Assembly (NCBI GenBank): GCA_902560725.1
Contig: CACEMR010000001.1
Span: 134,713-198,712 of the forward strand
Reading direction: 5' to 3'
DNA length: 64,000 bases
DNA from: an uncultured Alphaproteobacteria bacterium
GTDB taxonomy: Bacteria > Pseudomonadota > Alphaproteobacteria > HIMB59 > GCA-002718135
Every line of letters begins with the position of its first letter. The stretch's first letter is position 1. Made by a program: the position numbers and the translations under genes. Below are positions 8,463 through 37,837 of this stretch, one piece after another. The notes beneath the pieces are model-generated. The model saw only the letters and a program-made list of their open reading frames with translations, was not told the origin of the DNA and ran no database searches.

Positions 8463-8467
8463 AATTA

Positions 8468-8563
8468 TAAGGAAGGTTTTAAGACCCAAATAACATTGTT
8501 ACAGCTGCTTCTTTTCAGATCTGACTGGATTAGCAACTTATTTGCCCTCAAACCTTCCTCGCC
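8468..8563 (-). ncRNA. ffs: signal recognition particle RNA (small 4.5S-type)
   Basis: The minus-strand reads GAGGAAGGTTTGAGGGCAAATAAGTTGCTAATCCAGTCAGATCTGAAAAGAAGCAGCTGTAACAATGTTATTTGGGTCTTAAAACCTTCC. The closing helix GGAAGGTTT/AAACCTTCC and the domain IV core CCAGTCAGATCTGAAAAGAAGCAGC resemble E. coli CCAGGTCAGGTCCGGAAGGAAGCAGCC (recalled from memory). ffs upstream of dnaX is the usual synteny. Ends are approximate. Confidence 0.75.
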
Positions 8564-10176: not shown

Positions 10177-10266
10177 AATTATGCGACAATTAAACTACAA
10201 GTATTAAATTTACTTATCATTACAAATGTATTCATTCATTAAAAAAATCTGTATATACATTTATAC

Positions 10267-10812: not shown

Positions 10813-10820
10813 ATTACAAA

Positions 10821-11597: not shown

Positions 11598-11640
11598 AAA
11601 TTTCTTTTTTTTCAAAATAGAATTATATTAAAATTATATT

Positions 11641-13464: not shown

Positions 13465-13504
13465 TTATTAAAGTTTGTCATAAATAATATACAATAATTA
13501 AATT

Positions 13505-15627: not shown

Positions 15628-15628
15628 A

Positions 15629-17203: not shown

Positions 17204-17204
17204 G

Positions 17205-20222: not shown

Positions 20223-21037
20223 ATATATTGCAATAAATTATCTCTTGTTTTTATACCAGTAATTTTTATTAATTTATAATTATTACAAATAATTTGACTG
20301 GGTTTTTTTGATTTTAATCTTTTATCAACTTCAATTTTTTTGTTAAATTTATTATAGGCGATTTTTAATGCTAAATCTTCAAGTGTTACACCATTACCAG
20401 ATCCACAATTAATAATACCATTATTTTTTTTAGATATAATGGAGCATAATTGTTTAGTTATATACTCTATTGAAGAGATATCTCTAATATTATTATAATT
20501 TTTTAATTTAATTTTATTACCTTTTAATTTTTTAATCTTATCAATTATTGAGGGTATTAAAAAATCTTTTGATTGCGATGGGGAATAATAGCTAAACAAT
20601 CTAATAATTAAATAATTTGTTAGATATTTCTGTATCTCTTTTTCTGATTTGAGTTTTAATTTTCCATAGTAAGTAAGTGGATTGATTCGAGATACTTCAG
20701 ATATTTTTTTTTTAGAACTTGAATAAACATGTGATGAGGAAATAAAAATTAATTTTTTTCTAGACTTGTAACTTTTCAATTTTTTAGTAAGGAATTTTAC
20801 ACTATTATAATTAACTTTTTCGGCATATTTTTTATTTTTATTTACATCATTTATAGAAGTTACAGCGGCTAAATGGAGAATTATATCAACTTTTTCTATC
20901 CATTTTTCGAAATTTTCTAAATTTAAAACATCAGATTTGTATAATGAGATAGTATATCTATTTTTTTCATATTTTTTTATGTAATTTATGATAGATTTTC
21001 CTAAAATTCCTTTATGACCCGTAATTCCTAAAATCAT
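20219..21037 (-). CDS. short-chain NAD(P)-dependent sugar epimerase/reductase (candidate 4-keto-6-deoxy-sugar reductase)
   Basis: ILGITGHKGILGKS Rossmann start and a YGKLK catalytic Y-x3-K. 272 aa, translationally coupled to gmd. Confidence 0.6.
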   Translation of the reverse strand: MILGITGHKGILGKSIINYIKKYEKNRYTISLYKSDVLNLENFEKWIEKVDIILHLAAVTSINDVNKNKKYAEKVNYNSVKFLTKKLKSYKSRKKLIFISSSHVYSSSKKKISEVSRINPLTYYGKLKLKSEKEIQKYLTNYLIIRLFSYYSPSQSKDFLIPSIIDKIKKLKGNKIKLKNYNNIRDISSIEYITKQLCSIISKKNNGIINCGSGNGVTLEDLALKIAYNKFNKKIEVDKRLKSKKPSQIICNNYKLIKITGIKTRDNLLQYI

Positions 21038-21045
21038 TTTATACC

Positions 21046-21747
21046 ATGAAAATACTTATAATAATTCCTGCATATAATGAAGACCAAAATATTGTTAATT
21101 TAATTAAAATTATTCAAAAAAATTATTTAAACTACGATATTTTAATAATTGATGACTCCAGTAATTCATTAACTAAAGAAATTATAGAAAAAAATAAATT
21201 CAAAAATTTAGAATACATTAAAAGGAATATAAAAATGGGTAGAGGAAATGCAGTCAGATTTGGTTTTGAGTACTCAATAAAAAAATTGTATGACTTTATA
21301 ATTGAAATGGATGCTGATTGTTCTCATGATCCTCATGAAATTAAAAATCTATTGGAAAAAATTACTAAAAATAATTTTGATTTAATTATAGGAAGTAGAT
21401 ATTTAAACAAAAGCAAAATTATAGGATGGCCTTTAAAAAGAAGAATTTTTTCAAAATTGGCAAACTTCTTAGCTAGGTTTTTATTTGGTTTTGATATAAC
21501 AGATTATACTAATGGATTTAGAATTTATAACAGAAAATCAATTATAGAGCTTATGAAATATGATATTAATAATCATGGTTTTATTTATCTAACTGAAACT
21601 TTAGTGATTTTAAAAAAGAAAAATTACCTTGTGGGAGAATGCTCTACAATATTTATAAATAGAAAGCATGGAAATAGTTCATTAAAAATAAATGAAATAA
21701 TAAATTCACTTTTAGGGATTTTTAAAATTAAAATAAGAAAAATATGA
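21046..21747 (+). CDS. family 2 glycosyltransferase, DPM1-like polyprenyl-phosphate sugar synthase type
   Basis: N-terminus ILIIIPAYNE and an EMDADCSHDP motif (DPM1-like DAD..H.P). 233 aa. Confidence 0.75.
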   Translation: MKILIIIPAYNEDQNIVNLIKIIQKNYLNYDILIIDDSSNSLTKEIIEKNKFKNLEYIKRNIKMGRGNAVRFGFEYSIKKLYDFIIEMDADCSHDPHEIKNLLEKITKNNFDLIIGSRYLNKSKIIGWPLKRRIFSKLANFLARFLFGFDITDYTNGFRIYNRKSIIELMKYDINNHGFIYLTETLVILKKKNYLVGECSTIFINRKHGNSSLKINEIINSLLGIFKIKIRKI

Positions 21748-22940
21748 ATTATTTTCCTTTAACAACTAATACTTTAAGCAATGAAGATAAAAAACTAGCG
21801 ATAGATGTTATAAAAAGTGGCAATATAACAAGAGGTAATTATAATAAATTAGTTGAACAATACTTTACTAAAAAATTTAAAAGATATGCATTATTAGTAA
21901 ATTCTGGTTCTTCAGCTAATTTGTTGGCATTTTCATTATTGGTAAATAAAAAAAGAAAATATAATTTAAAAAAAGATGATGAAATAATAATTCCTGCACT
22001 ATGCTGGTCTACATCATTATTTCCAATTATACAAATGGGTTTAAAACCTGTTTTTGTAGATGTTGATATTAAAACCTTAAATATTGATTTAAAAGAATTA
22101 GAAAAGAAAATAACCAAAAAAACAAAGGCTGTTATGTTAGTTCATGCACTAGCTAATTGTACAGATATAAGTTTACTGAAGAAGATTTTAAAGAGATATA
22201 AATTAATTCTGATTGAAGATGCTTGTGAGGCATTGGGCTCTAAATATAAAAATAATTATTTGGGTACGCATGGAGCACTTGCTTCCTTTTCATTTTATTT
22301 TTCTCATCATATTACTTCTGGTGAGGGTGGATTAATTTTATGTAAAAGTTATCAAGATTACAAAATTTTATTATCTTTAAGAGCACATGGGTGGTCAAGA
22401 GAAATTGATAATTTAAAAAGAAAAAAATCTAAAAGGTTTAATAAATTATTTAACTTCATAAATCTTGGATATAACTTAAGACTAACTGATATTCAGGCTG
22501 CATTACTTCTAAATCAGGTTAAAAAAATTGATAAATTTAAAGTTAATAGACTCTATAATTATAATCTAATTTGCAAAATATTTAAAAAAGATAAATTTTT
22601 AGAAAATCATTTAATATTTATAGCCAGTCAAAAAAATGCTGAAGTAAGTTGGTTTAATTTTCCGATTATTCTAAAAAAATTTAAGAATAGAAAAAGAGAT
22701 ATAGTATGTGAAAAACTTAATGAACTCGGAGTTGAGACAAGACCGATAATTAGTGGTGATTTTTCTAAACAAAAAGTGATTCAGGATGACTTTATGGATT
22801 TATCTAAATTACGATTTTCTAATGCTACTAAAATTAACAATTCTGGTTTTATGTTGGGTATTTCTTCTAATAAGTTAGAAAAAAAAATAGTAATAAGATT
22901 AGCAAATGATATCAAAAAAGTAATTAATGCAGTAAAATAA
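21744..22940 (+). CDS. DegT/DnrJ/EryC1-family PLP/PMP enzyme with His in place of the Schiff-base Lys (ColD/E1-like sugar 3-dehydratase candidate)
   Basis: NSGSSANLLA motif. The active-site stretch is SFSFYFSHHITSGEGG, where canonical aminotransferases have FSFH..K.IT.GEGG. It is adjacent to gmd. Confidence 0.65.
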   Translation: MNYFPLTTNTLSNEDKKLAIDVIKSGNITRGNYNKLVEQYFTKKFKRYALLVNSGSSANLLAFSLLVNKKRKYNLKKDDEIIIPALCWSTSLFPIIQMGLKPVFVDVDIKTLNIDLKELEKKITKKTKAVMLVHALANCTDISLLKKILKRYKLILIEDACEALGSKYKNNYLGTHGALASFSFYFSHHITSGEGGLILCKSYQDYKILLSLRAHGWSREIDNLKRKKSKRFNKLFNFINLGYNLRLTDIQAALLLNQVKKIDKFKVNRLYNYNLICKIFKKDKFLENHLIFIASQKNAEVSWFNFPIILKKFKNRKRDIVCEKLNELGVETRPIISGDFSKQKVIQDDFMDLSKLRFSNATKINNSGFMLGISSNKLEKKIVIRLANDIKKVINAVK

Positions 22941-22966
22941 ATATTTAATTATTTTAAATCATTAAG

Positions 22967-24769
22967 ATGAGCTTATTCCTTAGTTTTTATTTTACTGTTC
23001 CGTTAATTCTACTTGGTTATGGTTATATATTTTCTAGAATCATATTAAAAAATAATAATCACAAAATAGATATTGGTTTAATTGGATTACTAGGATTTTT
23101 ATTTCTTTATTTAATTTCAAATATAACACATTTTTTCATAAATTTTGATAACTCATTAATATTTATAATACAAATTTTAGGCATTATATTTTTTCTATAT
23201 TTATTGACTAGTTCTAATATTAAAAAATTTGATTTGTTTAAATTATTATTTCTTAGTATAATTTTTTTACCCATTGCAATTATTACAGAACCTAATGAAG
23301 ATTTTTATCATTATTATTTGCCTTATCTAAAATATTTAGAGTCATCAAAAATTATTTTTGGATTGGTAAATATTAATGACACTTTAGCTTACTCATCAAA
23401 TAGCTTTTATGATATTTTAGTATTATTTAAATATCCTTTCAGTTTTAAAAATTCCTACTCTATTCCTATTTTTTTCTTTTATATTTTTTACTTATTTTTT
23501 ATAATTAATAAAATTCTTAAATATAATGATTTTTTTTATATTTTTATATTTTTATTATCTCTTATTTCGTTCACAAGTTTAAGAGATTTTGGAACAAGTA
23601 TACCTCCACAGTTGGCATTAATAATTTGTGCTTGTTTAATTTATGAATGTTTAATTTACGGTTATAATGAAAATAAGATAACATTTGTTATAGTATTAAT
23701 CACACTAGCTATTATTTTAAGAATCAATAGTATATTGATACTACCATTATTTTTATTATTAATTTATTTTTTTTATAAAAAAATTCCAAATTATATTTAT
23801 AATAATATTATTATAGTTTTTACTATATTGTTAATTGTAATATTTTTTTTAGGAAAAAATCTTATACAATCCTCCTGTTTAGTTTACCCTATTCATAATA
23901 CATGTTTTTCAAATCTTGATTGGTCGACAGATTTAAAAATAGTAAATCAAAAATATAGCAAACTTCAAGCAGACTCTAAGGGATGGTCTTTTTATGCAAA
24001 AGAAAATTTCAATATTAAAGATAAATATGTATGGAAAAATTTGAACAAAGATAACTTTATTGAATATAAAGATTATGCAACAACAACACCTTTTTTTTGG
24101 ACTAAATATTGGATAAAAGATCCTAATTATAAAAAAATATTAAATTTATTTTTATCAGTTATTATTATTTATTTTTTGTTATTAATTAATTCTAAAAAAA
24201 ATTATAATTCACAATTCTTAGACAATAAGAATAATTTTATTTATCTTCTTTCGTTTTCATTTTTTTCATGTCTTGCTTGGTTTTATTTATCTCCTCAAAT
24301 AAGATATGGAGGGGCATTTTGTTTTATTTTTTTTTTCAGTATTTCTATAAAATACATTAATGAAAATTTGAATAGAGATATAAAAATAACAAATTTAATT
24401 TTAATTATATTGATTGTCTTTTCATATGTTGAATATAAAAATTTTAATAGGATTTATAGTAGTTTTCAAAATGAATTATTTGATAATTTTCCTTGGCCGA
24501 ATTTCCATGAATTACAAATAGATAATGATTTTATTATTGAAGAAAAGAATCGAATAAAATTTAATAAAAGGATTTACTCAAATAAGCTATTGTTTGATAA
24601 TAATAACGACTATATTTTAATGTGTGGAAATATTGATTTTCCATGTATTCCTGAAGGTAAAGAAGTGTGTTTAAATAAAGAAAAATCTAAATACGGGTAT
24701 TTATTTTATAGTCATAACAAAGAAAATGATAATTGTTATAATTTTATGAATAAAAATATTCTTTATTAA
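22967..24769 (+). CDS. large polytopic membrane protein of unknown family (GT-C-like candidate), paralog of 32131..33648
   Basis: 600 aa with more than 10 predicted hydrophobic helices. Shares colinear motifs with the 32131 ORF (LGYG, NEDFYHY, LRDFGTSIP, SSCLVYPIHNTCFSNLDW, RYGGAF). A Cys-containing soluble C-terminal region is present. Confidence 0.6.
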   Translation: MSLFLSFYFTVPLILLGYGYIFSRIILKNNNHKIDIGLIGLLGFLFLYLISNITHFFINFDNSLIFIIQILGIIFFLYLLTSSNIKKFDLFKLLFLSIIFLPIAIITEPNEDFYHYYLPYLKYLESSKIIFGLVNINDTLAYSSNSFYDILVLFKYPFSFKNSYSIPIFFFYIFYLFFIINKILKYNDFFYIFIFLLSLISFTSLRDFGTSIPPQLALIICACLIYECLIYGYNENKITFVIVLITLAIILRINSILILPLFLLLIYFFYKKIPNYIYNNIIIVFTILLIVIFFLGKNLIQSSCLVYPIHNTCFSNLDWSTDLKIVNQKYSKLQADSKGWSFYAKENFNIKDKYVWKNLNKDNFIEYKDYATTTPFFWTKYWIKDPNYKKILNLFLSVIIIYFLLLINSKKNYNSQFLDNKNNFIYLLSFSFFSCLAWFYLSPQIRYGGAFCFIFFFSISIKYINENLNRDIKITNLILIILIVFSYVEYKNFNRIYSSFQNELFDNFPWPNFHELQIDNDFIIEEKNRIKFNKRIYSNKLLFDNNNDYILMCGNIDFPCIPEGKEVCLNKEKSKYGYLFYSHNKENDNCYNFMNKNILY

Positions 24770-24775
24770 TTTTTT

Positions 24776-24845
24776 TGGCGGAGTGAGAGGGATTCGAACC
24801 CTCGATAGTGTTGCCACTATACACGCTTTACAAGCGTGCTGATTA
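24776..24845 (-). repeat. truncated tRNA-Ser 3-prime fragment (70 nt, att-like direct repeat, copy 1)
   Basis: Aligns with positions 28135..28204 of the intact tRNA-Ser, from the CCA end through the anticodon arm. It lacks the 5-prime acceptor strand and most of the D arm. It has one acceptor-stem change and one anticodon-loop change. Confidence 0.85.
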
Positions 24846-24905
24846 GGAAAGAATGAAAAGATTATAAAGAGAGTTTACAATTTAATATTAATTTTTGATG
24901 TAGAT

Positions 24906-24934
24906 AGTGTGTCGTATATGTGTCTAACATTTTA
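24906..24934 (+). repeat. imperfect direct repeat, copy A (AGTGTGTCGTATATGTGTCTAACATTTT)
   Basis: Similar to 25715..25748 (AAGTGTGCCGTATGTGTGCCGAAACACAATTTT). Each copy contains an internal GTGTGYC..GTGTGYC duplication. Confidence 0.55.
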
Positions 24935-24974
24935 CATGGTATTTGGATGATATTTCTTATAAGTATTATATCTA

Positions 24975-25658
24975 ATGAATATAATTATTAAAAACCTTAT
25001 TCTTGTTTTTATGCTTTTCTTTTCTAATAACAATATAGCTTATGGAGAAAAATATTTAGAAGTTATAAAATTATATGACTTATATTCTGAAGAAATTTTA
25101 GATATTGACCAACTATATTCTGGTCTTGAAAAAATGAACATAAGTAATGAAAATATTAAAAATTTAATTTCTCTAAGAAAAAGTGATATTCTTTCAGAAG
25201 ATGATTTTGTAAACGGTATAAAGAAAATTTTAGCAGAAGTTTCTAGTTTAGAAAATAAGTCAAAAGAAAATGAAAATGATATCAGTAAACAAAATATAAT
25301 AAAGCATGAGTTTCAAACGGAAATTACAATTATTCACAGTTTTATTATTTCTGATTTTAAATATGGAGAGATTTGGAATCATATGGTTGCACTAGATGGT
25401 GAAAAAATTATTGAAATGTCATTTAAAGATTCAAAAAATAATGATTTAATTAAATTAAGAAAACCTAAATTTAAAAACTTGAAAAATAATAAATTTGCTA
25501 TTCGATCAAGTGCAATTTATTTGCCAGAACCGTCAGTGGGTATTCGATATGATTTCAAAGGAGAATTTGTTAATAATAAAATTGTTGGTGAAGTTGAGAT
25601 TACATACACTGAGAGTGACGAGGCCGGTCTTGTTTTATTAAGAGCTAAAACAAATTAA
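24975..25658 (+). CDS. hypothetical secreted protein (signal peptide, two SHOCT-like short helical repeats, beta-rich C-terminal half)
   Basis: 227 aa with leader MNIIIKNLILVFMLFFSNNNIAYG. The segment LISLRKSDILSEDDFVNGIKKIL resembles the SHOCT consensus. No family was recognised for the C-terminal half. Confidence 0.55.
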   Translation: MNIIIKNLILVFMLFFSNNNIAYGEKYLEVIKLYDLYSEEILDIDQLYSGLEKMNISNENIKNLISLRKSDILSEDDFVNGIKKILAEVSSLENKSKENENDISKQNIIKHEFQTEITIIHSFIISDFKYGEIWNHMVALDGEKIIEMSFKDSKNNDLIKLRKPKFKNLKNNKFAIRSSAIYLPEPSVGIRYDFKGEFVNNKIVGEVEITYTESDEAGLVLLRAKTN

Positions 25659-25714
25659 TTAATTCAAAGTTTTTAAAGTAAAATGTGTGAGAAATTATAA
25701 TTTTTAATATATGT

Positions 25715-25748
25715 AAGTGTGCCGTATGTGTGCCGAAACACAATTTTG
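25715..25748 (+). repeat. imperfect direct repeat, copy B
   Basis: See 24906..24934. It lies 33 nt before tRNA fragment 2. Confidence 0.55.
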
Positions 25749-25780
25749 TTGGAAAATCGTTAAAGAAAAATCTTAATTAA

Positions 25781-25840
25781 TGGCGGAGAGAGAGGGATTC
25801 GAACCCTCGATAGTGTTGCCACTATACACGCTTTCCAAGC
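25781..25840 (-). repeat. truncated tRNA-Ser 3-prime fragment (60 nt, att-like direct repeat, copy 2)
   Basis: Matches 28135..28194 of the intact tRNA-Ser except for 4 substitutions that form two compensatory base-pair swaps in the variable-arm stem. Similarity stops abruptly inside the anticodon stem, exactly where base composition changes. Confidence 0.9.
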
Positions 25841-26039
25841 TATCGCCGTGAACTTTGCGGCTCTCTTCGTGTGCAAACAATCCTTGTTATATGGGATTAT
25901 ATTATACTAAATCACTGCAAGTGAATCGAAAAGTACTGAGTTAAGATATTCGCATATGGTTGGTCTGATAACTGGGGGTCTTTAGATTAACTTATTAAAT
26001 ATACTTGAAATATTTCGTATATATGTTGTAATAGATTAG

Positions 26040-26057
26040 GGAATTTTAGGAATTTTA
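26040..26057 (+). repeat. tandem 9-bp direct repeat GGAATTTTA x2 upstream of the glutaminase start
   Basis: Exact tandem duplication ending 19 nt before ATG 26077. Confidence 0.6.
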
Positions 26058-26076
26058 TCTATTTGAAAAAGAAATT

Positions 26077-28113
26077 ATGGGTGAGGTAAGGCAAATAAAA
26101 AAAGAAAAGTCAATTTCCCAATTGGAAAGGCTAAAAGCGCAAGGTCCACCAAGAGAGGCAAACTTATTTTATTCATTGTGTGAAAATGGCCAAGACAAAA
26201 TTAACAAAACTCAATTTAAACAAGCATTGTTTGATGCAGGATTAAGCTCTCTAGACTATCGTCTAAAAAGCCTCTTTGAGAAACTAGAAAAGCATGGTGA
26301 GCAAATAGATTTTGAAGAATTTATGTCTTTCACAAGAACAGGTGGATTACTCGCTGAAAAAGCTCTTCGCGGAGAACTTGCAGTTCCAGACTTCAGGGAT
26401 TTTTCGAGAAACTTGGATAAAATCTATGACGAAGTTCTTCCAAATAGGTCGGGAGACTTAGCTCGTTATATACCACCGCTTGCAGAGGTTGATCCAGAAC
26501 AATTCGGTATAGCGGTTGTTACTACTGATGGACAAATTTATCAGCGAGGTGATACGAATGTAGACTTCTCAATTCAATCAATGTGTAAACCTTTCAATTA
26601 CTCTTTTGCAATTGAGAATCTTGGATTAGAAAAAGTTAATCGTCATGTAGGTGTGGAACCCTCAGGTCGACAGTTTGATGATTTAACACTTATGGTAAAA
26701 GGCATGGGAGGCAGTAGCTTGTCACCTAACAATAAAGTTCCGTTTAATCCAATGGTAAATGCAGGGGCAATTATGACCACTGGTTTAATCAATCCAAGGG
26801 ATACAACAAATGATCGGCTTCAATATATAAGAGAACAGTTTGGTCGAATAATAGGTTGGAATAAAGAAGAAACTTCTGGTGTTAACTTGCCAAGATTTAA
26901 TAAGACAATGGCTCGCCAAGAAAACTTTAAAGGCTACAATAACATAGCTACAGGTTTCTTACTAATGGCTACAGGTAACATTCCTTACTCAGAGTCTTTA
27001 TTGCCCGATGATATTTACGAAGATAGTCAATATGAATATGATTTTTATGTAGAACCTGCAGTCACAAATGCTTTGAAAGTATACTTTAGTATTTGCTCAT
27101 TAGAAATGACAGGAAAAGATGTTGCCATGGCTGCAGCAACACTAGCCAATGGTGGCGTCTGTCCAATTACTCAAGATCGAGTTATGAGCCAAAAAACTGT
27201 TCGAAACGTACTTCCCGTTGTCCAAACAGCAGGAATGTATAATAGCAGCGGTCAGTTCTTTCAGGAAATAGGCTTACCATCAAAAAGTGGTGTTGGTGGC
27301 GGTATATTACTTATAGTCCCCCAGCTAATGGGAATCTGTATTTTTTCTCCTCGACTAGATTTAGTTGGAAATAGTGTGCGCGGCATTGATGTTGCAAGAA
27401 GAGTTACACAAAAATATCTCGTTCATGCTTTTGATGGTACTATGACTGATACCGATAGAATTGATCCCAAGCTTCCAATTGCAAGATGGCGAGCTAATAG
27501 TTGCGGAGAAGCAATATGGGCTGCAAGTAATGGCGATGTTAGAACTCTTGAACGCCTTGTTAGCCAGCAAAGAGATTTAGAAGCTGGCGATTATGACATA
27601 AGAACACCTCTTCATTTAGCCTCTGCTGAGGGACAATTAGAAGTGGTTAAGTTTTTGTTAAGCCACGGAGTAAAACCAATACCCGATCGATGGGGAGGTT
27701 ATCCAATTTCTGACGCAAGAAATAATAATCATCAAGAAATTATTGATGAATTTAACAAATTAGACATTGAGTATACAGAGCCTGTTCATTTGGTTGAGGA
27801 ACCAGAGGGGTTAACTGACGAAATGGTAACCTTTGATAATGAATTAATGGTAATCGAGTTACTCTTTGCTGCAGCTGAGAACGATGTTAATGGTTTAAGA
27901 CAACTAGTGGCCAAAGGAGTTCCTGTTCATGCTGGAGACTATGACTCTCGAACTTCATTACACCTTGCAGCAGCTGAGGGAAGTTTACAGGCGGTTAAAT
28001 ATTTGGTTTCTCATGGGCACCCTTTAAATGTTCGTGATCGATGGGGATCCACACCGTTAGATGAAGCCAAAAGAGAGAAGCGAGAAGAAGTTATTAAATA
28101 TTTGAGTCAGTAA
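26077..28113 (+). CDS. kidney-type (eukaryote-like) glutaminase: EF-hand-like N-domain + glutaminase core + two ankyrin-repeat modules
   Basis: Serine-beta-lactamase-like glutaminase motifs are present: [11 protein letters not shown] (S-x-x-K), [40 protein letters not shown]. The N-terminal segment [27 protein letters not shown] is colinear with animal GLS (recalled from memory). The C-terminus has GDYD.RT.LHLA.AEG...VK.L.SHG...DRWG..P repeated twice. Confidence 0.9.
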   Translation: [678 protein letters not shown]

Positions 28114-28134
28114 AAATTTCTATTTTATATTAAG

Positions 28135-28224
28135 TGGCGGAGAGAGAGGGATTCGAACCCTCGGTAGTATTGCTACTACACACGCTTTCCAAGCGTGCTG
28201 ATTAAACCGCTCTCACATCTCTCC
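28135..28224 (-). tRNA. tRNA-Ser (anticodon GGA), CCA encoded
   Basis: The minus strand reads GGAGAGATGTGAGAGCGGTTTAATCAGCACGCTTGGAAAGCGTGTGTAGTAGCAATACTACCGAGGGTTCGAATCCCTCTCTCTCCGCCA. It folds by eye: acceptor GGAGAGA/TCTCTCC, anticodon stem CACGC/GCGTG with loop TTGGAAA, long variable arm GTAGTA-GCAA-TACTAC, and T arm GAGGG-TTCGAAT-CCCTC. Confidence 0.92.
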
Positions 28225-28299
28225 TTTTAAAGACAAAGAACATATTTATTTATACATAATAAAATATATAAGTAACATTACAAATTTTAATTATATTTA

Positions 28300-29010
28300 A
28301 TGAATTCAAAACTTCAAAATCTCAGTATTGTTGTACCAGTTTACAACGAAGAAAAAACTTTACTAGAACTTTTAAAAAAAATTGAAGTATTAAAAAGTGG
28401 ATGTAATCTTGAAGTTATAATTATTAATGATGGTTCATCAGATAATTCAAGACAAATTATAGATAATAATAAAGACTTATATAGCAAAGCTATACACTTA
28501 GAAAAAAATTCTGGTAAAGGAAGAGCTGTTATTGAGGGAATAAAAGAATGCAATTATGATTATATTCTAATTCAAGATGCTGATCTAGAATATGACCCTA
28601 ATGATATTTTTATGTTTTTGAAAGAAAATGAAAAATTTAATTATGATTTAATTATGGGGAGTAGATTTATTGGTACTCGAAGATCTGTTCTTCATTTTTG
28701 GCATATGATTGGTAATAAATTCATAACACTATTATTTAACATATTAAATAATACTACTTTTACCGATATTTATTGTTGTTATTGTATGTTTAAAAGAGAT
28801 TTAATTGATGTAAATAATCTCAAATGTAATAATTGGGGTCAACAAGCTGAAATTCTAACTTATATAATTAATAAAGACTCTAAAATATATGAAATAGGAG
28901 TAAGCTACCACGGTAGAAAATATAGTGAAGGTAAAAAAATAAGATATTATGACGTATTTTCAGTTGTATACTGGATAATTTCAACAAAAATTAAAAAGTT
29001 TTTTCCATGA
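28300..29010 (+). CDS. family 2 glycosyltransferase, DPM1-like polyprenyl-phosphate sugar synthase type
   Basis: LSIVVPVYNEE N-terminus, INDGSSD, and an IQDADLEYDP motif. 236 aa. Confidence 0.8.
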   Translation: MNSKLQNLSIVVPVYNEEKTLLELLKKIEVLKSGCNLEVIIINDGSSDNSRQIIDNNKDLYSKAIHLEKNSGKGRAVIEGIKECNYDYILIQDADLEYDPNDIFMFLKENEKFNYDLIMGSRFIGTRRSVLHFWHMIGNKFITLLFNILNNTTFTDIYCCYCMFKRDLIDVNNLKCNNWGQQAEILTYIINKDSKIYEIGVSYHGRKYSEGKKIRYYDVFSVVYWIISTKIKKFFP

Positions 29011-30188
29011 AATGTAAAGTTTGTAACTCTACAAAAATAGTTGAAGTTGTTAATCTTGGAAAACAACCATTAGCAAATAAATATCCTAAAAATAATACTG
29101 AAATTTTAAATGAAAAAAAATTCATATTAAAAATTTTATTTTGTAAAAATTGCAGGGCAGGTCAAATTAAAAAAATAATTAATAGAAATATTTTATTTGA
29201 GGATTATTATTATCTTTCGTCTGTAAATAAAAAACTAAAAGAACACTTTGAAAGATTAGCCATTAAAATAAAAAAATATAATTTTGTAGTAGATATCGGT
29301 TCTAATGATGGTATTTTATTAAAACCTTTAAAAAAATTAAATGTAAAATCAATAGGAATAGACCCTTCGGTAAATGTAGGAAAAATAGCCAACGATAGAG
29401 GCTTAGAAACATATATAGGTTTTTTTGATAAAAATATTATTAAAAAAATACTGAAAAAAAATAATAAACCAGATTTAATCGTTGCATCTAGTGTTGTTAC
29501 ACATCTAGAAAATCCAATAAAGTTTGCTAAAGATATAAAGAGTTTTTTAGAAAAAGATGGAACATTAATTATAGAAATTGAATATCTTCAAAATTTTTTA
29601 AAAAATTTGGAATTTGAAAGATTTTATTTTGATAGACCATTCTATTATTCTGCAAATTCTATAAAAGAACTTTTCAGAAATGTTGGAATGAAATTATATG
29701 ATATTGAAAAAATTGAACCTCATGGTGGATCGTTAAGATGTTTCATTAAAAATTCATTAAATACAAAAATTTCAAATAGATGTAAAAAAATACTAAATAA
29801 TGAAAAACAAAATTTAAATTTAAATGCATTTAAAAAATTCAATAAACAAATTTACAAAAACTCTAAAATTTTAAAAGCCCAGTTAAATTATTTTAATAAA
29901 AAAGGTTATAATATTATTGGTTATGGTGCTCCAGCAAGAGTTTCAACAATTACTAATGTAGCAAAAATTGACTCAAGTTTAATTAAGTATATTATAGATG
30001 ATAGTCCGCTTAAACAGAATAGATTTTCTCCAGGAATGAATATTAAAATTTTACCAAGAAAAAATAATATAAATAAGAACATTGATGTAGTAATTGTATT
30101 TGCTTATGAGTATTTTAAAGATATTAAAAAATTTTTTACCAAAATAAAAGTTCAGTTTTTTAAACCAATTCCATTCGGTAAATTATAA
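29007..30188 (+). CDS. SAM-dependent sugar C-methyltransferase-like protein (N-terminal zinc ribbon + methyltransferase + C-terminal C-MT domain)
   Basis: CKVCNS..(28)..CKNCRAGQ zinc ribbon and VVDIGSNDG SAM motif I. The roughly 390 aa architecture resembles NDP-hexose C-methyltransferases (TylCIII-like). Confidence 0.65.
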   Translation: MKCKVCNSTKIVEVVNLGKQPLANKYPKNNTEILNEKKFILKILFCKNCRAGQIKKIINRNILFEDYYYLSSVNKKLKEHFERLAIKIKKYNFVVDIGSNDGILLKPLKKLNVKSIGIDPSVNVGKIANDRGLETYIGFFDKNIIKKILKKNNKPDLIVASSVVTHLENPIKFAKDIKSFLEKDGTLIIEIEYLQNFLKNLEFERFYFDRPFYYSANSIKELFRNVGMKLYDIEKIEPHGGSLRCFIKNSLNTKISNRCKKILNNEKQNLNLNAFKKFNKQIYKNSKILKAQLNYFNKKGYNIIGYGAPARVSTITNVAKIDSSLIKYIIDDSPLKQNRFSPGMNIKILPRKNNINKNIDVVIVFAYEYFKDIKKFFTKIKVQFFKPIPFGKL

Positions 30189-31228
30189 TGAGTACTTTGT
30201 TGCAATCCGATGTTGATACCATAATTAAAAATACAAAAAAAATATCAAACTATTTTAATGGAAAAAAAATATTAATAACCGGGGGAAATGGATTTTTAGG
30301 AAAATATTTTGTAGAAGTGTTTAAGGAGTATAATAAATATTTAAAAAAACCAGTTCAAATATACATTTATGATAAAACTTTCAAAAAAAATAAATTATTA
30401 AAATCATCTAATTTAAGTTTTATAAAAAAAGATGTTTCAAAAAAATTTTCTAATAGAAAAAAATTTGATGTTGTGATTCACGCAGCAGGAATAGCGAGTC
30501 CATTTTACTATAGAAAACAACCAATCGAAACTCTAGACGTAGCTATAAATGGCACAAGAAACTGTTTAGAAATTGCGAAAAAAAATAATGCGAAATTTAT
30601 TTTTTTTAGTTCTAGCGAAATATACGGTGATCCAGATAAGTATAACGTTCCAACAAAAGAGTCATATAGAGGTAATGTAAGCTCACTTGGACCTAGGGCT
30701 TGTTATGATGAAAGCAAACGATTAGGTGAAACATTGTGTTATATTTACAATAATTATTATAATCTACACACTAACATAATAAGACCTTTTAATATTTATG
30801 GTCCTGGAATGGGTCAAAAAGATTATCGTATATTTCCAAACTTTATTAGTAATATATTAAATAATAAAAAAATTAATATTTATGGATCTGGTAATCAAAC
30901 GAGAACATATTGCTATATTTCAGATGCTGTTGAGGGTTTTATAAGAGTGATATGTTCTGGTAAATCTGGAGAAGCATATAACATTGGAAATGACAAGCCT
31001 GAAGTTTCAGTTAAAGATATTTATAAAATATTTAAAAAAATTCATAATAAAAAAATAGATGCCAAATTTATAAGTCATCCTAAATCATATCCAGATGATG
31101 AACCACAAAGGAGATGTCCAAATATTAGTAAAGCAAAAAAAGATTTAAATTATAAAACAAGAGTTAATTTAGAAAATGGTTTAAAAATTTTTTTAGAGTG
31201 GGCAAAGACTAATTACAAAGTTTTCTAA
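30188..31228 (+). CDS. extended SDR NAD-dependent sugar decarboxylase/dehydratase (UDP-glucuronate decarboxylase/ArnA C-domain-like)
   Basis: ITGGNGFLGKYF Rossmann motif, SSSEIYGDP, and CYDESKRLGE (Y-x3-K), similar to UXS-type enzymes. Confidence 0.75.
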   Translation: MSTLLQSDVDTIIKNTKKISNYFNGKKILITGGNGFLGKYFVEVFKEYNKYLKKPVQIYIYDKTFKKNKLLKSSNLSFIKKDVSKKFSNRKKFDVVIHAAGIASPFYYRKQPIETLDVAINGTRNCLEIAKKNNAKFIFFSSSEIYGDPDKYNVPTKESYRGNVSSLGPRACYDESKRLGETLCYIYNNYYNLHTNIIRPFNIYGPGMGQKDYRIFPNFISNILNNKKINIYGSGNQTRTYCYISDAVEGFIRVICSGKSGEAYNIGNDKPEVSVKDIYKIFKKIHNKKIDAKFISHPKSYPDDEPQRRCPNISKAKKDLNYKTRVNLENGLKIFLEWAKTNYKVF

Positions 31229-31229
31229 T

Positions 31230-32123
31230 ATGATTAATATTGGTATTGTTGGATGTGGTCATTGGGCCTTAAAAATAATCAATGAGATAAATAATAATAA
31301 AAAATTTAATCTAACTTCTATTGTTTGCCGAAATAAAAATAGTAATTTCAAAACATTAAAAGTTTTTGATACTGTTGAAAAAATGATTAATGCAAATATA
31401 ATTGACTGTATATACGTTGCGGCCGAACCAAAATTAAATTTAGAAATTGTGAATCTTATAAAAAATAAAAAAATACCAATAATTTTAGAAAAGCCAGTTA
31501 CAGACACATTAATAAATGCAAAAGAATTAAAAAATATAGCAATAAATAATAATTTAATGATTTATCCAAATTTAACAAATTATTTTTCTGAAACGTTTAA
31601 TGAATTAAAAAATTTAGTGGATAATAATTTTTTAAAAATAAAAGAAATAATCATATATGAGGGAAATTTTGGTCCCTTTAGAAAAAATATTAACCCTATT
31701 TGGGATTGGGGCTACCATTCAATTTCTCTTTTATTTCTTTTATTTGATTATAAGAAATTTTCAGATGTCAAAAAAAAGGAAATTAAATCTAATAATATCT
31801 ATGGAAAAGGTATTGTAACTAAATTTTACTTTAAAATAAATTCAAAAATTAATGTAAAAATAATAACTGGTAATTTATTTAAAAAAAAAATAAGAAAGAT
31901 TAAAATTGTACTTAATAACAATGAAAATATTTTAAATGATATGATTGTTCATGAAATTAAATTTAATAATAAACAAATATTTAAAAATAAAAAATCACCA
32001 ATTTCTTCACTATTAAATACTTTTGAAAAATCAATTAAAATAAATGATTTTGAAATTTCTAACAATTTAATTGACGTATCTTACCACACAACTAAGTTTT
32101 TAGATAAATTTTACAGATGTTAG
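31230..32123 (+). CDS. Gfo/Idh/MocA-family NAD(P)-dependent oxidoreductase
   Basis: IGIVGCGHWA N-terminal Rossmann motif and an ILEKPV motif characteristic of the family. Confidence 0.6.
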   Translation: MINIGIVGCGHWALKIINEINNNKKFNLTSIVCRNKNSNFKTLKVFDTVEKMINANIIDCIYVAAEPKLNLEIVNLIKNKKIPIILEKPVTDTLINAKELKNIAINNNLMIYPNLTNYFSETFNELKNLVDNNFLKIKEIIIYEGNFGPFRKNINPIWDWGYHSISLLFLLFDYKKFSDVKKKEIKSNNIYGKGIVTKFYFKINSKINVKIITGNLFKKKIRKIKIVLNNNENILNDMIVHEIKFNNKQIFKNKKSPISSLLNTFEKSIKINDFEISNNLIDVSYHTTKFLDKFYRC

Positions 32124-32130
32124 TTATTAT

Positions 32131-33648
32131 ATGAGTATAGAATTTTTAAATCTTTTTCTTTATCCAATACTTACTCTAATAATTTTGATAAGTGTTCTGG
32201 GTTATGGAAATTTCTTCAATAATGTCTTCTCTTTAAATAAAATTGAATTAGAACTAAAAAATATAATATTCATCCAAGGATTAGTATTTGTTGGTTTTTT
32301 TTTTATTTTTATAAATTTTTTTATACCAATATCTAATTTTATAAGTTTATTAACAATACTATTAGGAGCATTATTATATTTTTTTTTTATTTATAAAAAA
32401 AAAATAAAGAGAAATGAAGTAATATTTATTTTATCCGTTCTAGTTTTTAGTATTATTTATTCATTTTATGCAGGATTTAATGATGACTTCAATTATCATT
32501 ATGAAACTATTAAAAACTACAAAAATAAAGATTTATTTGAAATTCTTCACCATAGAAGAGTAAGCTATAATTCTCATTGGTTATTTTTAACATCTATTTT
32601 TTCAGTAAGTTTTTTTACAAGTACACTATTCATTCTTTCATCTTTATTTTTTTCAATATCAATTTACGATTTTTTTAATTTATCCAGAAGAGCAATTAGA
32701 AATAAGGAGTACTATTTATCAATTACATCTTTTTTGATTCTCATTTTCTTTTTAGGGGTATTAAATCAACTTAAAGATTTAGGTACTGACATACCTGGTG
32801 TAATAATTAGTATTTATATTATAATTATTATTTTTAATCATTTATTAGATAAAAAAACTGAGTCAATAAATGATATTTTTTTAATTATATTATTACTATC
32901 TTTGTTTGCTTTTATAATTAAAATATCAAATGTTCTTATTTTTCTTTTTTTATTTTTTTTATTATTCAAAATAAAATATAATAAAATTAATTATCGGTGG
33001 TTTTTTTTAATTTGTTTAATTCCAGTTCCATGGTTTTTTCAAAATTATGTAATTAGTAGTTGTATAATTTGGCCAATAACTATTACGTGTATTTCAAATA
33101 CAGATTTAGCTATCAGTGAAATTTATTTAATTGAATCTTTTGCTAAAGGCGATCAAAATACATCTATTGATTTAAATAATCTTAGCTGGATTAAGTTGTG
33201 GCTTACTAATCACTCTTCTAAAATGTTAGAAACTTATTTTATATACTTTATTATACTAATAATACCCTTCATTTATGTTTTTTTTAAAAAAAGAAATAAT
33301 AAAATATTTATAATAAAATATTTAAAAGATAAATACTTAGGCATTAATTATAAATTTTTTATTTTAATTATTTTATTTTGTAATTTAATATGGTTTTTCT
33401 TTGCACCAGCCTATAGGTTTGGTGTATTTTATAATTTATTTTTTATAATCATATTATTGCTTCCATTGTGGTTATTTATGGTAGAAAATAATTATCAATT
33501 CATTTTAAAATATTCTAAAACAGTTTTAATAGTTATTTTTATCTATTTTATATTTGAAAATATTACCAGATTAGATTGGTACATGAAACGTTATGATGTT
33601 TGGCCGCCAATAAGCAAAGGTGAATTATTAGAAAGAAAAAATATTTAA
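32131..33648 (+). CDS. large polytopic membrane protein of unknown family (GT-C-like candidate), paralog of 22967..24769
   Basis: 505 aa and highly hydrophobic. Colinear motifs are shared with the 22967 ORF: [46 protein letters not shown]. Confidence 0.6.
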
Positions 33649-35447
33649 CTATCTTTCATTTTTAGAGCATTTAAAAATGTATTTTGAGGAATATCAACCT
33701 TACCAAACTGCCTCATTCTTTTTTTGCCCTTTTTTTGTTTATCTAAGAGTTTATTCTTTCTAGTTACATCTCCACCATAAAGTTTTTGTGTGACATCTTT
33801 TCTAAACGAGGCTACTGTTTCTCTTGCTATGATTTTTCCGCCAATTGCGGCTTGAATAGCTACTTTAAACTGCTGTCTAGGTATTAAATCTTTAAGCCTT
33901 TCGCACAACGCTCTACCCCTTTGTTCAGATCTATCTTTATGTACTATTAAAGATAGTGCATCGACAGGATCTCCGTTAATTAATATTCCAACCCTAACTA
34001 AATTATTAATTTCATACCCAGTAATCTCATAATCAAAGCTTGCATAACCCTTTGTTATTGATTTAAGTCGATCATAAAAATCAAATACGACTTCATTTAA
34101 TGGAAGCTTATATTCTACAAGAGGTCTATTTCCAGCATAACTCATATTTAATTGTATACCTCTTTTAGATGTACATAATTCCAAAACTGAACCCAGAAAT
34201 TCTTCAGGCACGATAATTGTTGCTCTAATCCAAGGTTCAGAGATATTTTCAACTTTTACAGGATCTGGCATATCTGTTGGATTATGAAGATCAATTGAAT
34301 TTCCATTTTTTAATAAAATTTTATAAACTACAGAAGGTGCAGTTGTTACAAGCTCTAAATTAAATTCTCTTTCAAAACGATCTCGGATTATTTCTAAATG
34401 AAGTAAACCTAAAAAACCACATCGAAAACCATAACCTAAAGCAGGACTAACTTCTGGCTCATAAGAAAAACTAGAATCATTTAATGCTAACTTAGCCATA
34501 CTATCTCGCATATGTTCATAATCATCTGAGTCAACTGGAAACATTCCACAAAAAACAACTGGCTGAGAAGGTTTAAATCCTGGTAATACCTCATCAGTTG
34601 GAATTTTATCATCAGTTATTGTATCTCCAACTTTACAATCAGAAACACTTTTAATACCCGAATTAATAAAGCCAATTTCCCCTGGTCCTAACGATTCTAC
34701 TTCAGTTGCTTTAGGAGAAAATATTCCAACCCTATCTATTGTATATGTTGCACCTGTAGCCATAAATCTAATTTTTTGTCCTTTTTTTAGTTCTCCGTTT
34801 ACAACTCTCACAAGAACGACAACACCGAGATAACTGTCATACCAACTATCAACTAACATACATTTTAATTCCTTATCAATTTGACCAGAAGGTGCTGGTA
34901 GTAGTTTTATAATTTTATTTAATAAGTCATCTATTCCTTCGCCTGTTTTTGCAGAAACAAGAGACGCATTATCAGTTTCAATTCCCAACACTTCTTCAAT
35001 TTGAGAATTTATTTTTTCTGGTTCGGAGGATGGTAAATCAATTTTATTTAAGACAGGTAGTATCTCATGGTTGTTGTTTATTGCTTGATAAGCATTAGCT
35101 AATGTTTGTGCCTCCACACCCTGTGTTGAGTCTACTATTAAAAGTGATCCCTCACAAGCTGCAAGAGATCTGGAGACTTCGTAAGAAAAATCAACGTGAC
35201 CAGGAGTATCCATGATATTTAAAATATATTTTTTCCCATCTTTAGATTTATAAGAAAGTCTTACTGTTTGAGCTTTAATAGTAATACCTCTTTCCCTCTC
35301 TAGATCCATAGAGTCTAGGACTTGTTCTTTCATTTCTCTATCAGTCAGACCACCGCAAAATTGTATAAGTCTATCAGCTAAAGTAGATTTTCCATGATCT
35401 ATATGTGCAACAATAGAAAAATTTCTTATAGAACTAAGTTCTGTCAT
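33645..35447 (-). CDS. lepA: translation elongation factor 4
   Basis: [21 protein letters not shown]1 motif, [12 protein letters not shown], and the conserved LepA C-terminal domain. Confidence 0.95.
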
Positions 35448-37837
35448 TAGTTTCTTATAGAAGCTTCAAATGATTTTGATATTACATCGATAATTTGTTT
35501 AGATAAGTTTTCAATTTCTTGATCACTAAATGTTTTATCTTGAGGCTGCATTAAAACTCTGAAAGCAATACTTTTTTTATTATCAGGTAATTTATCTCCA
35601 TCATATACATCAAATATTGTAACTTTTTGTATTAAGTTCTTATCAACCTTCTTTACTTTTTTTATTATTTCATTTGCTTCAATTTCTCTAGAAAAAAGAA
35701 AGGCAAAGTCTCTTTCAACCATTTGATATGGATTATTGATAAAAGCACCTCTTGATGAAGATTTATTTTCTTGAAATCGAGAAATATTTTCAATGAAAAT
35801 TTCAAAACCAAATACTTTAAAATTAATATCCATATTTTTTAATAAAATTGGATGAATTTCTCCAAAATTGGCAATTATATTTTTTCCCAATCTTAATGAA
35901 GAAGACTTGCCAGGATGATAGATTTGGCCATTTATTTTTTCATATAATAAATTTTCAGTAGGTACATTAAGGCTGATCAAAACTGAAAAGAGATCTGCTT
36001 TAATTGAATACACATCACTATTTTTTTTATTTGATAACCAGTTTGACTCATCAATTAAACCATAAGATATTGATGTAGCAACATTTTCCTGCAAATCAGA
36101 GAGGGATTTAGAGAAATTAGGACCTACCTCAAATATTTTTGCACTGGAATACATGCGAGCTTTATTTTGATTAACTGCTTCTAATAAATTTGGAATGGTA
36201 GATGGCCTCATTGTATTTAAATCACTACTAATTGGATTTTTTAAACCTATTGTTTCATTAGAAATAATTTTAGCCTTATTTTCATCCATAAATGACCAGG
36301 TAACAACTTCTGAATATCCTTTTGATGCAATAATTTTTTTTATTTTATGAAAAGTTTTAATAGAAGTATTTAATATTTCTTTTTTCACTTCTTCATAATT
36401 TATATTTTTTACAGGTATTTTATCAAAACCGTATATTCTTATAATTTCTTCAACTATATCAGCTTCACCAACAATATCAGGTCGAAAGGTGGGGATTTCA
36501 ATTTCAAGATTGGATTTTAATTCTTTAACAATAAAACCTAAAGACTTAAGAATTTTTATCTGGTCTTTAATTTCAACTTCAATACCTCCAAAAGTTTTTA
36601 CCATATTTGTATCAAAAGAAATTATTTTTCTTTTGTCTGTGTCTAAATTTGAAGATACATATTCACTTGCCTCTCCCCCGCATAACTCACTTATCATTTG
36701 ACTTGCGGCGTCCACACCCCAATGAATAGACTCTGCATCTATACCTCTTTCAAATCTGTATCTTGCATCACTTTGTAGATTTAATTTCCTTCCAGTTTTT
36801 GTAACAGAAATTGGATCAAATAAAGCAACCTCTAAAAATACATTCTTTGTGTCCATGCTACATCCACTTTTTAATCCACCCATAACACCACCAATGCCAT
36901 GAAGATTTTTATTATCATCTGAGATAACAATCATCTCTTCATCGCATTTATAATTTAATTCATTTAAAGCCATACATTCTTCTTTATTTTCAGCTAATCG
37001 CATTGTTAAATTTCCTGATACTTTGTCAGCATCATAAACATGAAGAGGGCGGCCAAGATCAAATGTCACATAATTAGTTATGTCTACTAGTGCTGAAATT
37101 GGTCTTAACCCTATAGCTTTAAGTCTTTTTTGAAGCCACTGAGGACTTTCAACATTTTCAACATTTTTAAAATACCTACCAGCTACTCCAGGGCATAATT
37201 TTTTATCTTTAAAATCTTTTTTCCATTTCATTGGACTTTTAAAAGTATCTTTAATTTTTTTAAATTTAAGTTCTTTTAACTTACCAGCACCTGCTGCAGC
37301 TAAATCTCTTGCAATACCTCTAACCGATAAGCAATCTGATCTATTAGGTGTTAAGTTTATTTCTATAATCGGTTCTTCTAATTTAAATATCTTACTAAAT
37401 TGATCACCAACTTTATAATCGCCTTTTACTTCTATAATGCCATCATGTTCATCTGAAATGCCCATTTCTCTCTCTGATACAAGCATACCACATGACTCAA
37501 CACCTCTAATTTTAGTTTTTTTTAAATGTAAATCAGTACCTGGAATATAACTATTTTCTGGTGCAAATATTCCTAACATTCCCTCTGTGGCATTAGGTGC
37601 TCCACATACTACTTGAAACTCACCATTAATTGTCATAACTTTACACACCTTGAGTTTATCAGCATCAGGATGTTTCTCAGCTTTTATTACTTTAGCAACA
37701 GTAAAGTATTTAAAATCTTCAGACTTATCCTCTACACTTTCTATTTCTAATCCAATGTTAGTAAGTGTTTCTGTTATAGTTTTAAGATCCTTTGATGTTT
37801 CCAAATGATCTTTTAGCCAGTCTAGCGTAAACTTCAT
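35447..37837 (-). CDS. pheT: phenylalanine--tRNA ligase beta subunit
   Basis: 796 aa, [13 protein letters not shown]-terminus, and B3/4, B5 and FDX-ACB domain order. Adjacent to pheS. Confidence 0.95.

Follow-up and report, generated by a model that had tools for sequence, protein, structure and literature searches.

Bacterial glutaminases of the short GlsA type (YbaS, YbgJ; TIGR03814) are single-domain proteins of ~310 aa that carry neither an N-terminal helical domain nor ankyrin (ANK) repeats. The animal enzymes KGA (GLS) and GLS2 (PDB entries 5uqe, 8gwr and 8szl) are built from an EF-hand-like four-helix N-domain, a serine-dependent catalytic core and a C-terminal ankyrin region, in that order, an architecture that Pasquali et al. 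in 2017 reportedly traced to bacterial ancestors. As regards mobile DNA, cis-mobilisable elements (CIMEs) are att-flanked units that lack a recombinase of their own. In the tycheposons of Prochlorococcus, successive integrations at tRNAs leave partial tRNAs (Hackl et al., bioRxiv 10.1101/2020.12.28.424599). The 64,000-nt stretch of DNA analyzed here (the window; contig CACEMR010000001.1 of an uncultured alphaproteobacterium) contains at 26077..28113 an open reading frame (ORF) of 678 aa that bears on both subjects. Taken as a whole, the evidence is best explained by a functional long-form glutaminase that belongs to a bacterial clade and was acquired horizontally as a cassette at a tRNA-Ser gene, a reading we consider probable.

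The glutaminase gene, referred to below as GLS, is divided as follows.

26077..28113, plus strand: multidomain glutaminase ORF, 678 aa, intact, with an ATG start
26158..26388, plus strand: EF-hand_14-like N-terminal helical domain (aa 28-104), matched by Pfam; canonical Ca-binding loop absent
26452..27432, plus strand: Glutaminase catalytic domain (aa 126-452), from Pfam PF04960 and residue alignment
27523..27780, plus strand: ANK module 1 (aa 483-568), colinear with the KGA and GLS2 ankyrin region and 47% identical to that of KGA
27844..28107, plus strand: ANK module 2 (aa 590-677), duplicated in tandem from the ankyrin region, with 45% identity to module 1 and 43% to the ankyrin region of KGA

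A Pfam scan of the protein matched PF04960 at aa 126-452 over the complete profile (positions 1-286 of 286; E 2.2e-88, 296.6 bits, cut-off 27), PF17959 (EF-hand_14) at aa 28-104 (29.6 bits, cut-off 23.7) and several Ank families, which fell in two blocks. The NCBIfam glutaminase A model TIGR03814 was passed narrowly (266.2 vs 255.4 bits). The top sequence match in the PDB was human KGA at nearly full length (8gwr_B, E 1.1e-96), with query residues 24-568 aligned as a single stretch on chain residues 137-648 and the N-domain forming one contiguous alignment with KGA residues 137-237. GLS2 (8szl) followed at E 2.5e-90, and E. coli YbaS reached merely 7.7e-43. With short GlsA the protein shares the catalytic domain and its chemistry, but it is 34.5% identical to YbaS over the core and has four extra modules in its 678 aa (vs ~300-330 aa). 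It is 38.9% identical to KGA and 30-37% identical to other eukaryotic enzymes.

The resemblance to KGA and GLS2 extends to the ankyrin region, where identity reaches 43-47%, as against an overall identity of just 37-39%. By contrast with those enzymes, the window protein has no mitochondrial transit peptide, and its ankyrin region is duplicated: the two modules align with each other at 45% identity (E 8e-24, aa 483-568 vs aa 590-677), and both are about equally near the single ankyrin region of KGA (E 1e-22 for module 1). The second module is absent from vertebrate GLS. The initial annotation had presented the ORF as a KGA-type enzyme distinct from compact GlsA. The ORF and each peptide string it cited are present in the translation, the N-domain, core and ankyrin order agrees with the Pfam and PDB matches, and the human KGA strings that it compared occur in KGA/GLS2 alignments. 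The ankyrin likeness that it drew is borne out as homology, with the correction that the quoted string lies in the second module and the colinear match is to the first.

Nine of nine catalytic or substrate-binding residues of KGA are identical in the window protein: Y131, S168, K171, N228, E282, N289, Y336, Y388 and V406, which correspond to KGA Y249, S286, K289, N335, E381, N388, Y414, Y466 and V484. The ratio of nonsynonymous to synonymous substitution rates (dN/dS) between close copies of the mobile type was 0.03-0.09, a mark of strong purifying selection on the gene. Because the catalytic set is complete and purifying selection acts on the gene, glutamine hydrolysis is predicted and would most likely occur in the cytosol: the product would be a cytosolic long-form glutaminase that converts glutamine and water to glutamate and ammonium by means of the Ser168/Lys171 pair of the beta-lactamase-like glutaminase fold. 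Direct reading of the protein revealed no signal peptide. Direct reading likewise found the canonical acidic ligands absent from both EF-hand-like loops, and EF-hand_7 remained under threshold; the sequence thus provides no basis for proposing Ca2+ binding by the N-domain. The whole bacterial clade described below carries two insertions relative to KGA and GLS2, one of ~10 aa in the activation loop (~aa 206-217) and one of ~22 aa (~aa 304-325) placed after the equivalent of KGA residue 400.

Relatives of the protein are numerous. Among the candidates scored in a protein database clustered at 90%, 4016 were relatives at E <= 1e-20; the best 120 of those shared its Pfam architecture at full length, and some carried the name Pelagibacterales glutaminase. 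An exhaustive HMMER search of 1.84 billion cluster representatives returned 1635 clusters at E <= 1e-30. When clustered at 50%, the whole marine clade formed one cluster, with the next relatives at 55% and 48% identity and the rest at ~40% or lower. Names among the clusters sampled included Synechococcus sp. RSCCF101, salmonid and lizard GLS/GLS2, Caenorhabditis, Sphaerothecum, Mataza and Palpitomonas. The Synechococcus sp. RSCCF101 protein, listed as "glutaminase A" (637 aa, from a complete genome), has the same family and architecture, including both ANK modules.

When each prokaryotic species was represented by one genome and these were scanned, 60 loci were obtained (cited below by L numbers), of which ~45 were from Pelagibacteraceae, as single-cell genomes or metagenome-assembled genomes (MAGs). 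The others included five Prochlorococcus single-cell amplified genomes (SAGs) with 80-84% identity in the best segment, marine Coxiellaceae at 70-72%, other Proteobacteria at 61%, MAGs of Rhodospirillaceae, Filomicrobium and Desulfobulbaceae at 54-57%, and one genome of GC 0.70 at 50%. Host GC content ranged from 0.32 to 0.70, and GC at third codon positions (GC3) of the gene tracked the host in every locus but that of the window.

A neighbour-joining tree was computed from 309 well-aligned columns of the catalytic region, with 100 bootstraps, and rooted with three short GlsA proteins as outgroup. The window protein grouped with L003, L004, L005 and L047 (bootstrap 100), this group with Prochlorococcus (97), and these in turn with two unclassified alphaproteobacterial SAGs in which glnA, the gene for glutamine synthetase, is likewise a neighbour (99), within a marine clade (83). 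All of these fell in an exclusively bacterial clade B (97). Its members, among them SAR11, Prochlorococcus, marine Coxiellaceae and further Proteobacteria, extend down to 47-55% identity. The separate clade A held the eukaryotic enzymes, the Synechococcus protein and unnamed proteins from metagenomes, at a weak bootstrap of 66. All of clade B, the Synechococcus protein and Palpitomonas have the second ANK module, which vertebrates lack. Given its placement in clade B, the window protein is a long-form bacterial glutaminase that stands as a sister to the eukaryotic enzymes rather than a descendant of them, in agreement with the conclusion attributed above to Pasquali et al. Nor is it an ordinary GlsA with unrelated terminal domains. 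Enzymes of the KGA type form a bacterial family that is both old and common among ocean plankton.

The initial annotation had offered two origins for the gene, an inter-domain transfer and a rare bacterial lineage of the same family. A recent transfer from an animal or protist GLS would account for the ranking of KGA and GLS2 well above bacterial GlsA among solved structures, for the identical domain order including the ankyrin region and for the composition of the gene, which is foreign in this host. Such a transfer is nonetheless very improbable, given that identity is 38.9% to KGA and 30-37% to other eukaryotes, that the gene is nested in the all-bacterial clade (bootstrap 97/100) whose members match the composition of hosts of GC 0.32-0.70, that synteny with glnA recurs in 33 genomes and that both the two clade insertions and the second ANK module are missing from vertebrate GLS. 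The foreign composition itself suggests a higher-GC SAR11 donor of the L004/L005 type. Rarity does not hold, since the family is present in the genomes of ~45 Pelagibacteraceae species, mostly in a conserved position next to suf and glnA, and also in Prochlorococcus, Coxiellaceae and others.

Further members of the wider family were seen beside these. Two SAGs labelled "uncultured Alphaproteobacteria" (L010 and L012; AG-325-J07 and AG-325-G13) form the sister lineage of the mobile subclade to which the window copy belongs, and the L010 gene adjoins glutamine synthetase. Contigs labelled as giant-virus MAGs in IMG/VR (L085, L087, L088 and others) encode glutaminases at 26-37% identity, some of them multidomain, with query residues 29-678 matched. 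A 340-kb "seawater metagenome" contig encodes a protein (P0171, VVU95304.1) with an N-domain, core and one ANK module.

The genomic setting of the relatives points to nitrogen metabolism. A convergent glnA adjoins the glutaminase gene in 33 of 56 loci from species-level genomes, and 29 of those 33 have the suf operon upstream, so that suf-GLS-glnA is a conserved, core-like position in SAR11. In one relative an ammonium transporter gene (amt) lies two genes from the glutaminase, and both gltB and gltD are found in the window, as the initial annotation had noted. The pairing with glnA in SAR11, gltBD in the window and the amt neighbour together point to nitrogen and glutamine homeostasis. The resident SAR11 gene, tail-to-tail with glutamine synthetase, would set the balance between glutamine and glutamate and would let imported glutamine serve as a source of nitrogen and carbon; a role in the use of imported glutamine is plausible. 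In L067 (5841-10245), a relative at 72% identity, the glutaminase gene is immediately preceded by genes for an ammonium transporter and a Gcw_chp protein.

An ankyrin protein could instead be a secreted host-interaction effector or toxin. The ankyrin region has a weak NCBIfam likeness to Legionella Dot/Icm Ank effectors (50.7 bits vs cut-offs of >=500), and relatives occur in Coxiellaceae MAGs. Scores so far under the cut-offs are, however, what generic ankyrin similarity gives; the ANK modules are specifically homologous to that of KGA (E 1e-22), the signal peptide is absent, the hosts are free-living SAR11 and Prochlorococcus, and the neighbours are glnA and, in one case, an ammonium transporter. 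An effector is therefore highly unlikely, and a metabolic glutaminase remains the preferred reading.

The gene lies in an islet at the 3' end of a tRNA-Ser gene, whose parts are as follows.

24776..24845, minus strand: older partial copy of the tRNA-Ser 3' end, 70 nt, 91% identical to tRNA-Ser(gga), distal boundary of the second cassette
24846..25780, plus strand: older cassette with one low-GC ORF (24975-25658, 227 aa)
25781..25840, minus strand: partial copy of the tRNA-Ser 3' end, 60 nt, 93% identical, an att-like repeat bounding the GLS cassette
25841..25955, no strand assigned: conserved cassette-end "arm", sequence shared between loci
25956..26076, plus strand: 5' leader of ~120 nt that moves together with the gene and is conserved in the window, L003, L004, L005 and L070-L073
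28135..28224, minus strand: intact tRNA-Ser(gga), 3' end toward the cassette, insertion hot spot
33645..37837, minus strand: lepA and pheT, chromosomal neighbours of tRNA-Ser conserved in SAR11

The GLS gene is the only gene between the 60-nt tRNA-Ser copy and the intact tRNA-Ser(gga), which bears out its description in the initial annotation as the sole cargo of a tRNA islet; apart from a 69-aa antisense ORF inside it, no other ORF of at least 50 aa is present in 25841-28134. The partial tRNA at 25781-25840 extends to ~25868 as a degenerate tRNA-like 5' part. With the third tRNA-Ser fragment at 24776-24845, the islet is composed of two tandem cassettes, in the order intact tRNA, GLS cassette, fragment, second cassette with the 227-aa ORF, fragment. 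Relative to the intact tRNA, both fragments show compensatory variable-arm changes (ATAGTG..CACTAT vs GTAGTA..TACTAC) and therefore derive from genuine tRNA-Ser genes of another sequence type. In the window, lepA and pheT are parted from tRNA-Ser by 5.4 kb of low-GC sugar-modification genes.

The composition of the gene sets it apart from its surroundings in this marine SAR11 host, a member of the Pelagibacteraceae. Its GC content is 0.39, compared with ~0.20 in the immediate flanks and 0.274 in the whole window, and its GC3 is 0.261 vs 0.152 +/- 0.023 in the other 51 ORFs (maximum 0.233; z = 4.7). Sharp GC steps at both junctions together with boundary repeats could also arise in an assembly chimera or contaminant. 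That explanation is scarcely credible here, given that these junctions recur in single-cell genomes and metagenome assemblies obtained independently (L003, L074, L075, L076 and L081), with both of them spanned in L003 and L081, that all of the window proteins tested trace to a single 202.7-kb contig and that L081 and L074 repeat the whole layout of lepA, sugar genes, tRNA-Ser and GLS.

The leader at 25956..26076 presumably holds the promoter and the translation start region. Promoter and terminator scans did not beat shuffles. An upstream regulatory RNA, such as a glutamine riboswitch, was sought with Rfam at permissive and gathering thresholds, which returned tRNA, the fragments and antisense artefacts only. 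The last of these were sub-threshold "Plastid-psbl-rps4 3UTR" matches on the plus strand (24779-24831, 25784-25826 and 28138-28179) that correspond to the antisense of the tRNA-Ser 3' segment; artefactual as they are, they pointed to the third tRNA-Ser fragment. The 227-aa ORF of the older cassette (24975-25658) has a signal-peptide-like N terminus, no Pfam match and a 90% cluster of just 4 members. It was compared with ORFs of similar size beside the cassette in L081 and found to be unrelated to them.

The wider surroundings (19000-33650) form a sugar-modification island of very low GC content (0.17-0.24) within which the tRNA-Ser islets sit. Its genes encode GT2 glycosyltransferases, a DegT aminotransferase, a C-methyltransferase, an epimerase and large membrane proteins without a Pfam match. 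In L074 and L081, other sugar genes occupy the same place between tRNA-Ser and lepA. Elsewhere in the window, the bacterial small signal recognition particle RNA was found at 8466-8560 on the minus strand (Rfam RF00169, 55.5 bits).

The cassette recurs as a unit in other genomes. L003, from another SAG, aligned contiguously with window positions 25789-28228 at 96%, the partial tRNA, gene and intact tRNA included. L081, a 52-kb metagenome contig, aligned to 25778-28228 at 86.5% and has the layout of the window: pheS-pheT-lepA, sugar-modification genes, tRNA-Ser, GLS, pseudo-tRNA and more sugar genes. The junction on the tRNA side is repeated in L075, L076, L077 and L078. In the SAG L074, the GLS cassette lies between two partial fragments, and a cassette with a trypsin-like peptidase separates it from the intact tRNA; a second rank for the GLS cassette in that array is what would follow if each new insertion displaced the earlier ones outward.

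The glutaminase gene is also found at other tRNA genes. It abuts tRNA-Glu beside recJ in L047, L002, L017 and L057, and the five Prochlorococcus SAGs have partial copies of tRNA-Pro(tgg), 44-51 nt long, on either side of it, inside arrays of such fragments. The Prochlorococcus tRNA-Pro arrays (L006 1265-4545; L009 1463-4743 and 10211-11182) also contain, by sequence, PstS-like phosphate-binding proteins, duplicated in L009, as well as a GAPDH-like gene and a major facilitator superfamily (MFS) gene pair. A recurrent 323-aa ORF in the Prochlorococcus loci was considered as an integrase and proved to be PstS-like by sequence. In L002 (SAG-MED29, 9724-21802), tRNA-Glu, glutaminase and sugar-modification genes are followed 9 kb on by an inward-facing Phage_integrase gene, and this stretch may be an intact larger element; no homolog of that integrase was found in the window or the other loci.

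The distal end of the cassette is shared more widely than its cargo. The arm module is common to L003 and L081, which have the same cassette, and to L072, where it follows a GLS-methyltransferase unit and starts a different cassette; L082 and L083 have a diverged form. When metagenome contigs from JGI were scanned with the invariant junction motif, four genuine instances were obtained. The same pseudo-tRNA/arm end, designated the ACGCTTTCCAAGCTATCGCC-type end, borders other cargo: an 812-aa NHL-repeat/cytochrome c protein in L082, a 10.7-kb glycosylation cluster in L083 and a dioxygenase-containing stretch in L080.

The islet resembles tycheposons and the tRNA-linked islands of Prochlorococcus (bioRxiv 10.1101/2020.12.28.424599) in that insertion is at a tRNA 3' end, full and partial tRNA copies flank the unit, older units are pushed outward by successive insertions and the cargo is a nutrient-metabolism gene; the Prochlorococcus GLS gene sits in just such a tRNA-Pro array. 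Unlike tycheposons, the GLS unit is only 2.35 kb long with one cargo gene, and it has neither an inward-facing tyrosine or large serine recombinase nor a replication module (primase, helicase, polymerase). The unit can therefore be regarded at most as a remnant or as an att-flanked cassette that is not autonomous. With CIMEs it shares the direct att-like repeats, the absence of integration genes and a conserved end common to units of different cargo, but no partner element or integrase was found for it, and mobilisation in trans is putative.

Because no recombinase is present, the insertion mechanism is one that we infer. The unit would be a cassette of ~2.35-2.4 kb that comprises the arm, the leader and the gene. 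Most likely it was placed at the tRNA-Ser(gga) 3' end by a site-specific recombinase that targets tRNA genes and acted in trans, and the GLS cassette would be the more recent of two successive insertions. As to its origin, the GLS protein is 97% identical to that of L004, as compared with 64% for the neighbouring lepA and 45% for pheT, which indicates that the window copy was acquired laterally from another bacterium and is a recent arrival. In L004, L005 and L070-L073, the gene has the same tRNA-Ser on one side and ordinary chromosomal genes on the other, matches the GC3 of its host and shares the ~120-nt leader with the window, so that this lineage is a plausible donor. The source would be another SAR11 lineage with the gene beside the same tRNA, plausibly of the L004/L005 type, maybe via capture of tRNA-adjacent DNA.

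Carriage by phages or other viruses was considered and rejected: there was no full-length match in 50,697 phage records. Nor did IMG/VR contain a close relative or the arm motif, its profile search giving only glutaminases at 26-37% identity, several of them in giant-virus MAGs. A search for a parent element found no recombinase on the contigs of P0001, P0014, P0061, P0354 and P0355 or in loci L080-L083.

Glycosylation islands in SAR11 are a kind of region exchanged by recombination. The cassette could accordingly have arrived or been exchanged by ordinary homologous recombination, as in flexible "replacement/additive" islands, with the tRNA-Ser repeats and the conserved flanks on the lepA and pseudo-tRNA/arm sides as anchors and no dedicated recombinase. 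The absence of a recombinase anywhere near the cassette and the position of the islet inside a glycosylation island fit this explanation, and the pseudo-tRNA/arm, which borders content as different as the 10.7-kb glycosylation cluster of L083, could be a landmark of a hypervariable region and not the end of an element. Against it stand the tandem partial 3' tRNA copies in the same orientation and the varying rank of the cassette (first in the window, second in L074), which are classic signs of repeated site-specific integration. Moreover, the left flanks past the fragment are not homologous between loci, and in another phylum the gene has tRNA-Pro fragments on either side. Homologous recombination is an unlikely explanation, though still a live one, and site-specific insertion of a bacterial glutaminase cassette is preferred.

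Several observations weigh against the preferred reading. No recombinase ORF was found in the islet, in the window region examined or in any cassette that shares the arm, and neither an excised or circular form nor an empty site was found. The resident suf-glnA site lies outside the window. The phylogeny is a neighbour-joining tree on 309 columns, in which the clade that holds the eukaryotes is supported at 66% and includes metagenomic proteins of unknown origin. The phosphate/BPTES regulatory residues of KGA are altered in the window protein (K320D, F322T, Y394L and D386Y), so that the activation-loop and allosteric positions K320, F322 and Y394 are occupied by D202, T204 and L295. Since these residues are not conserved, KGA-like phosphate activation is not to be assumed. 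Finally, an AlphaFold model was built from an alignment of 30 relatives that were eligible only at >=58% identity. Its N-terminal helical domain (predicted local distance difference test, pLDDT, 72-92) and both ANK modules were confident, but its catalytic core was poor, with pLDDT below 50 for aa 165-408, owing to this restriction of the alignment. Foldseek ranked multidomain KGA and GLS2 at the top for this model (E about 1e-23, TM 0.36-0.44), a comparison that, because of the low-confidence core, serves as supporting evidence only.

A broader proposal is possible, but we hold it with little confidence. The GLS unit may be one of a family of tiny recombinase-less cassettes with a common pseudo-tRNA/arm end that are shuttled in trans into the tRNA hot spots of marine bacteria with streamlined genomes, and its cargo may have moved in this way among deep SAR11 lineages (at tRNA-Ser and tRNA-Glu) and into Prochlorococcus (at tRNA-Pro). 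In parallel, the conserved GLS-glnA pair might be an unrecognised control of the glutamine pool in SAR11, which lacks PII/NtrBC, exerted through a regulated glutaminase with a non-animal allosteric loop.

The window thus presents a new enzyme-family member in a known kind of tRNA-linked islet. In the literature consulted we found no description of the clade in marine SAR11, Prochlorococcus and Coxiellaceae, of the synteny with glnA, of the mobile cassette form or of recombinase-less cassettes with a conserved end. What may be new is the sharing of this mobile cargo between deep SAR11 lineages and Prochlorococcus, the recombinase-less cassettes with their conserved end and the GLS-glnA synteny.

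The tempting reading of an animal gene in a bacterium is corrected by these results, in that the KGA-type architecture is native to the most numerous bacteria of the ocean, among which it is abundant. The family provides tractable bacterial homologs of a cancer-relevant enzyme whose altered activation loop and doubled ankyrin region are useful for probing domain roles. That a nitrogen-metabolism gene is mobile cargo of SAR11 and Prochlorococcus bears on niche-adaptive gene exchange without plasmids or prophages, and its conserved pairing with glnA suggests that it contributes to glutamine homeostasis where the usual nitrogen regulators are lacking.

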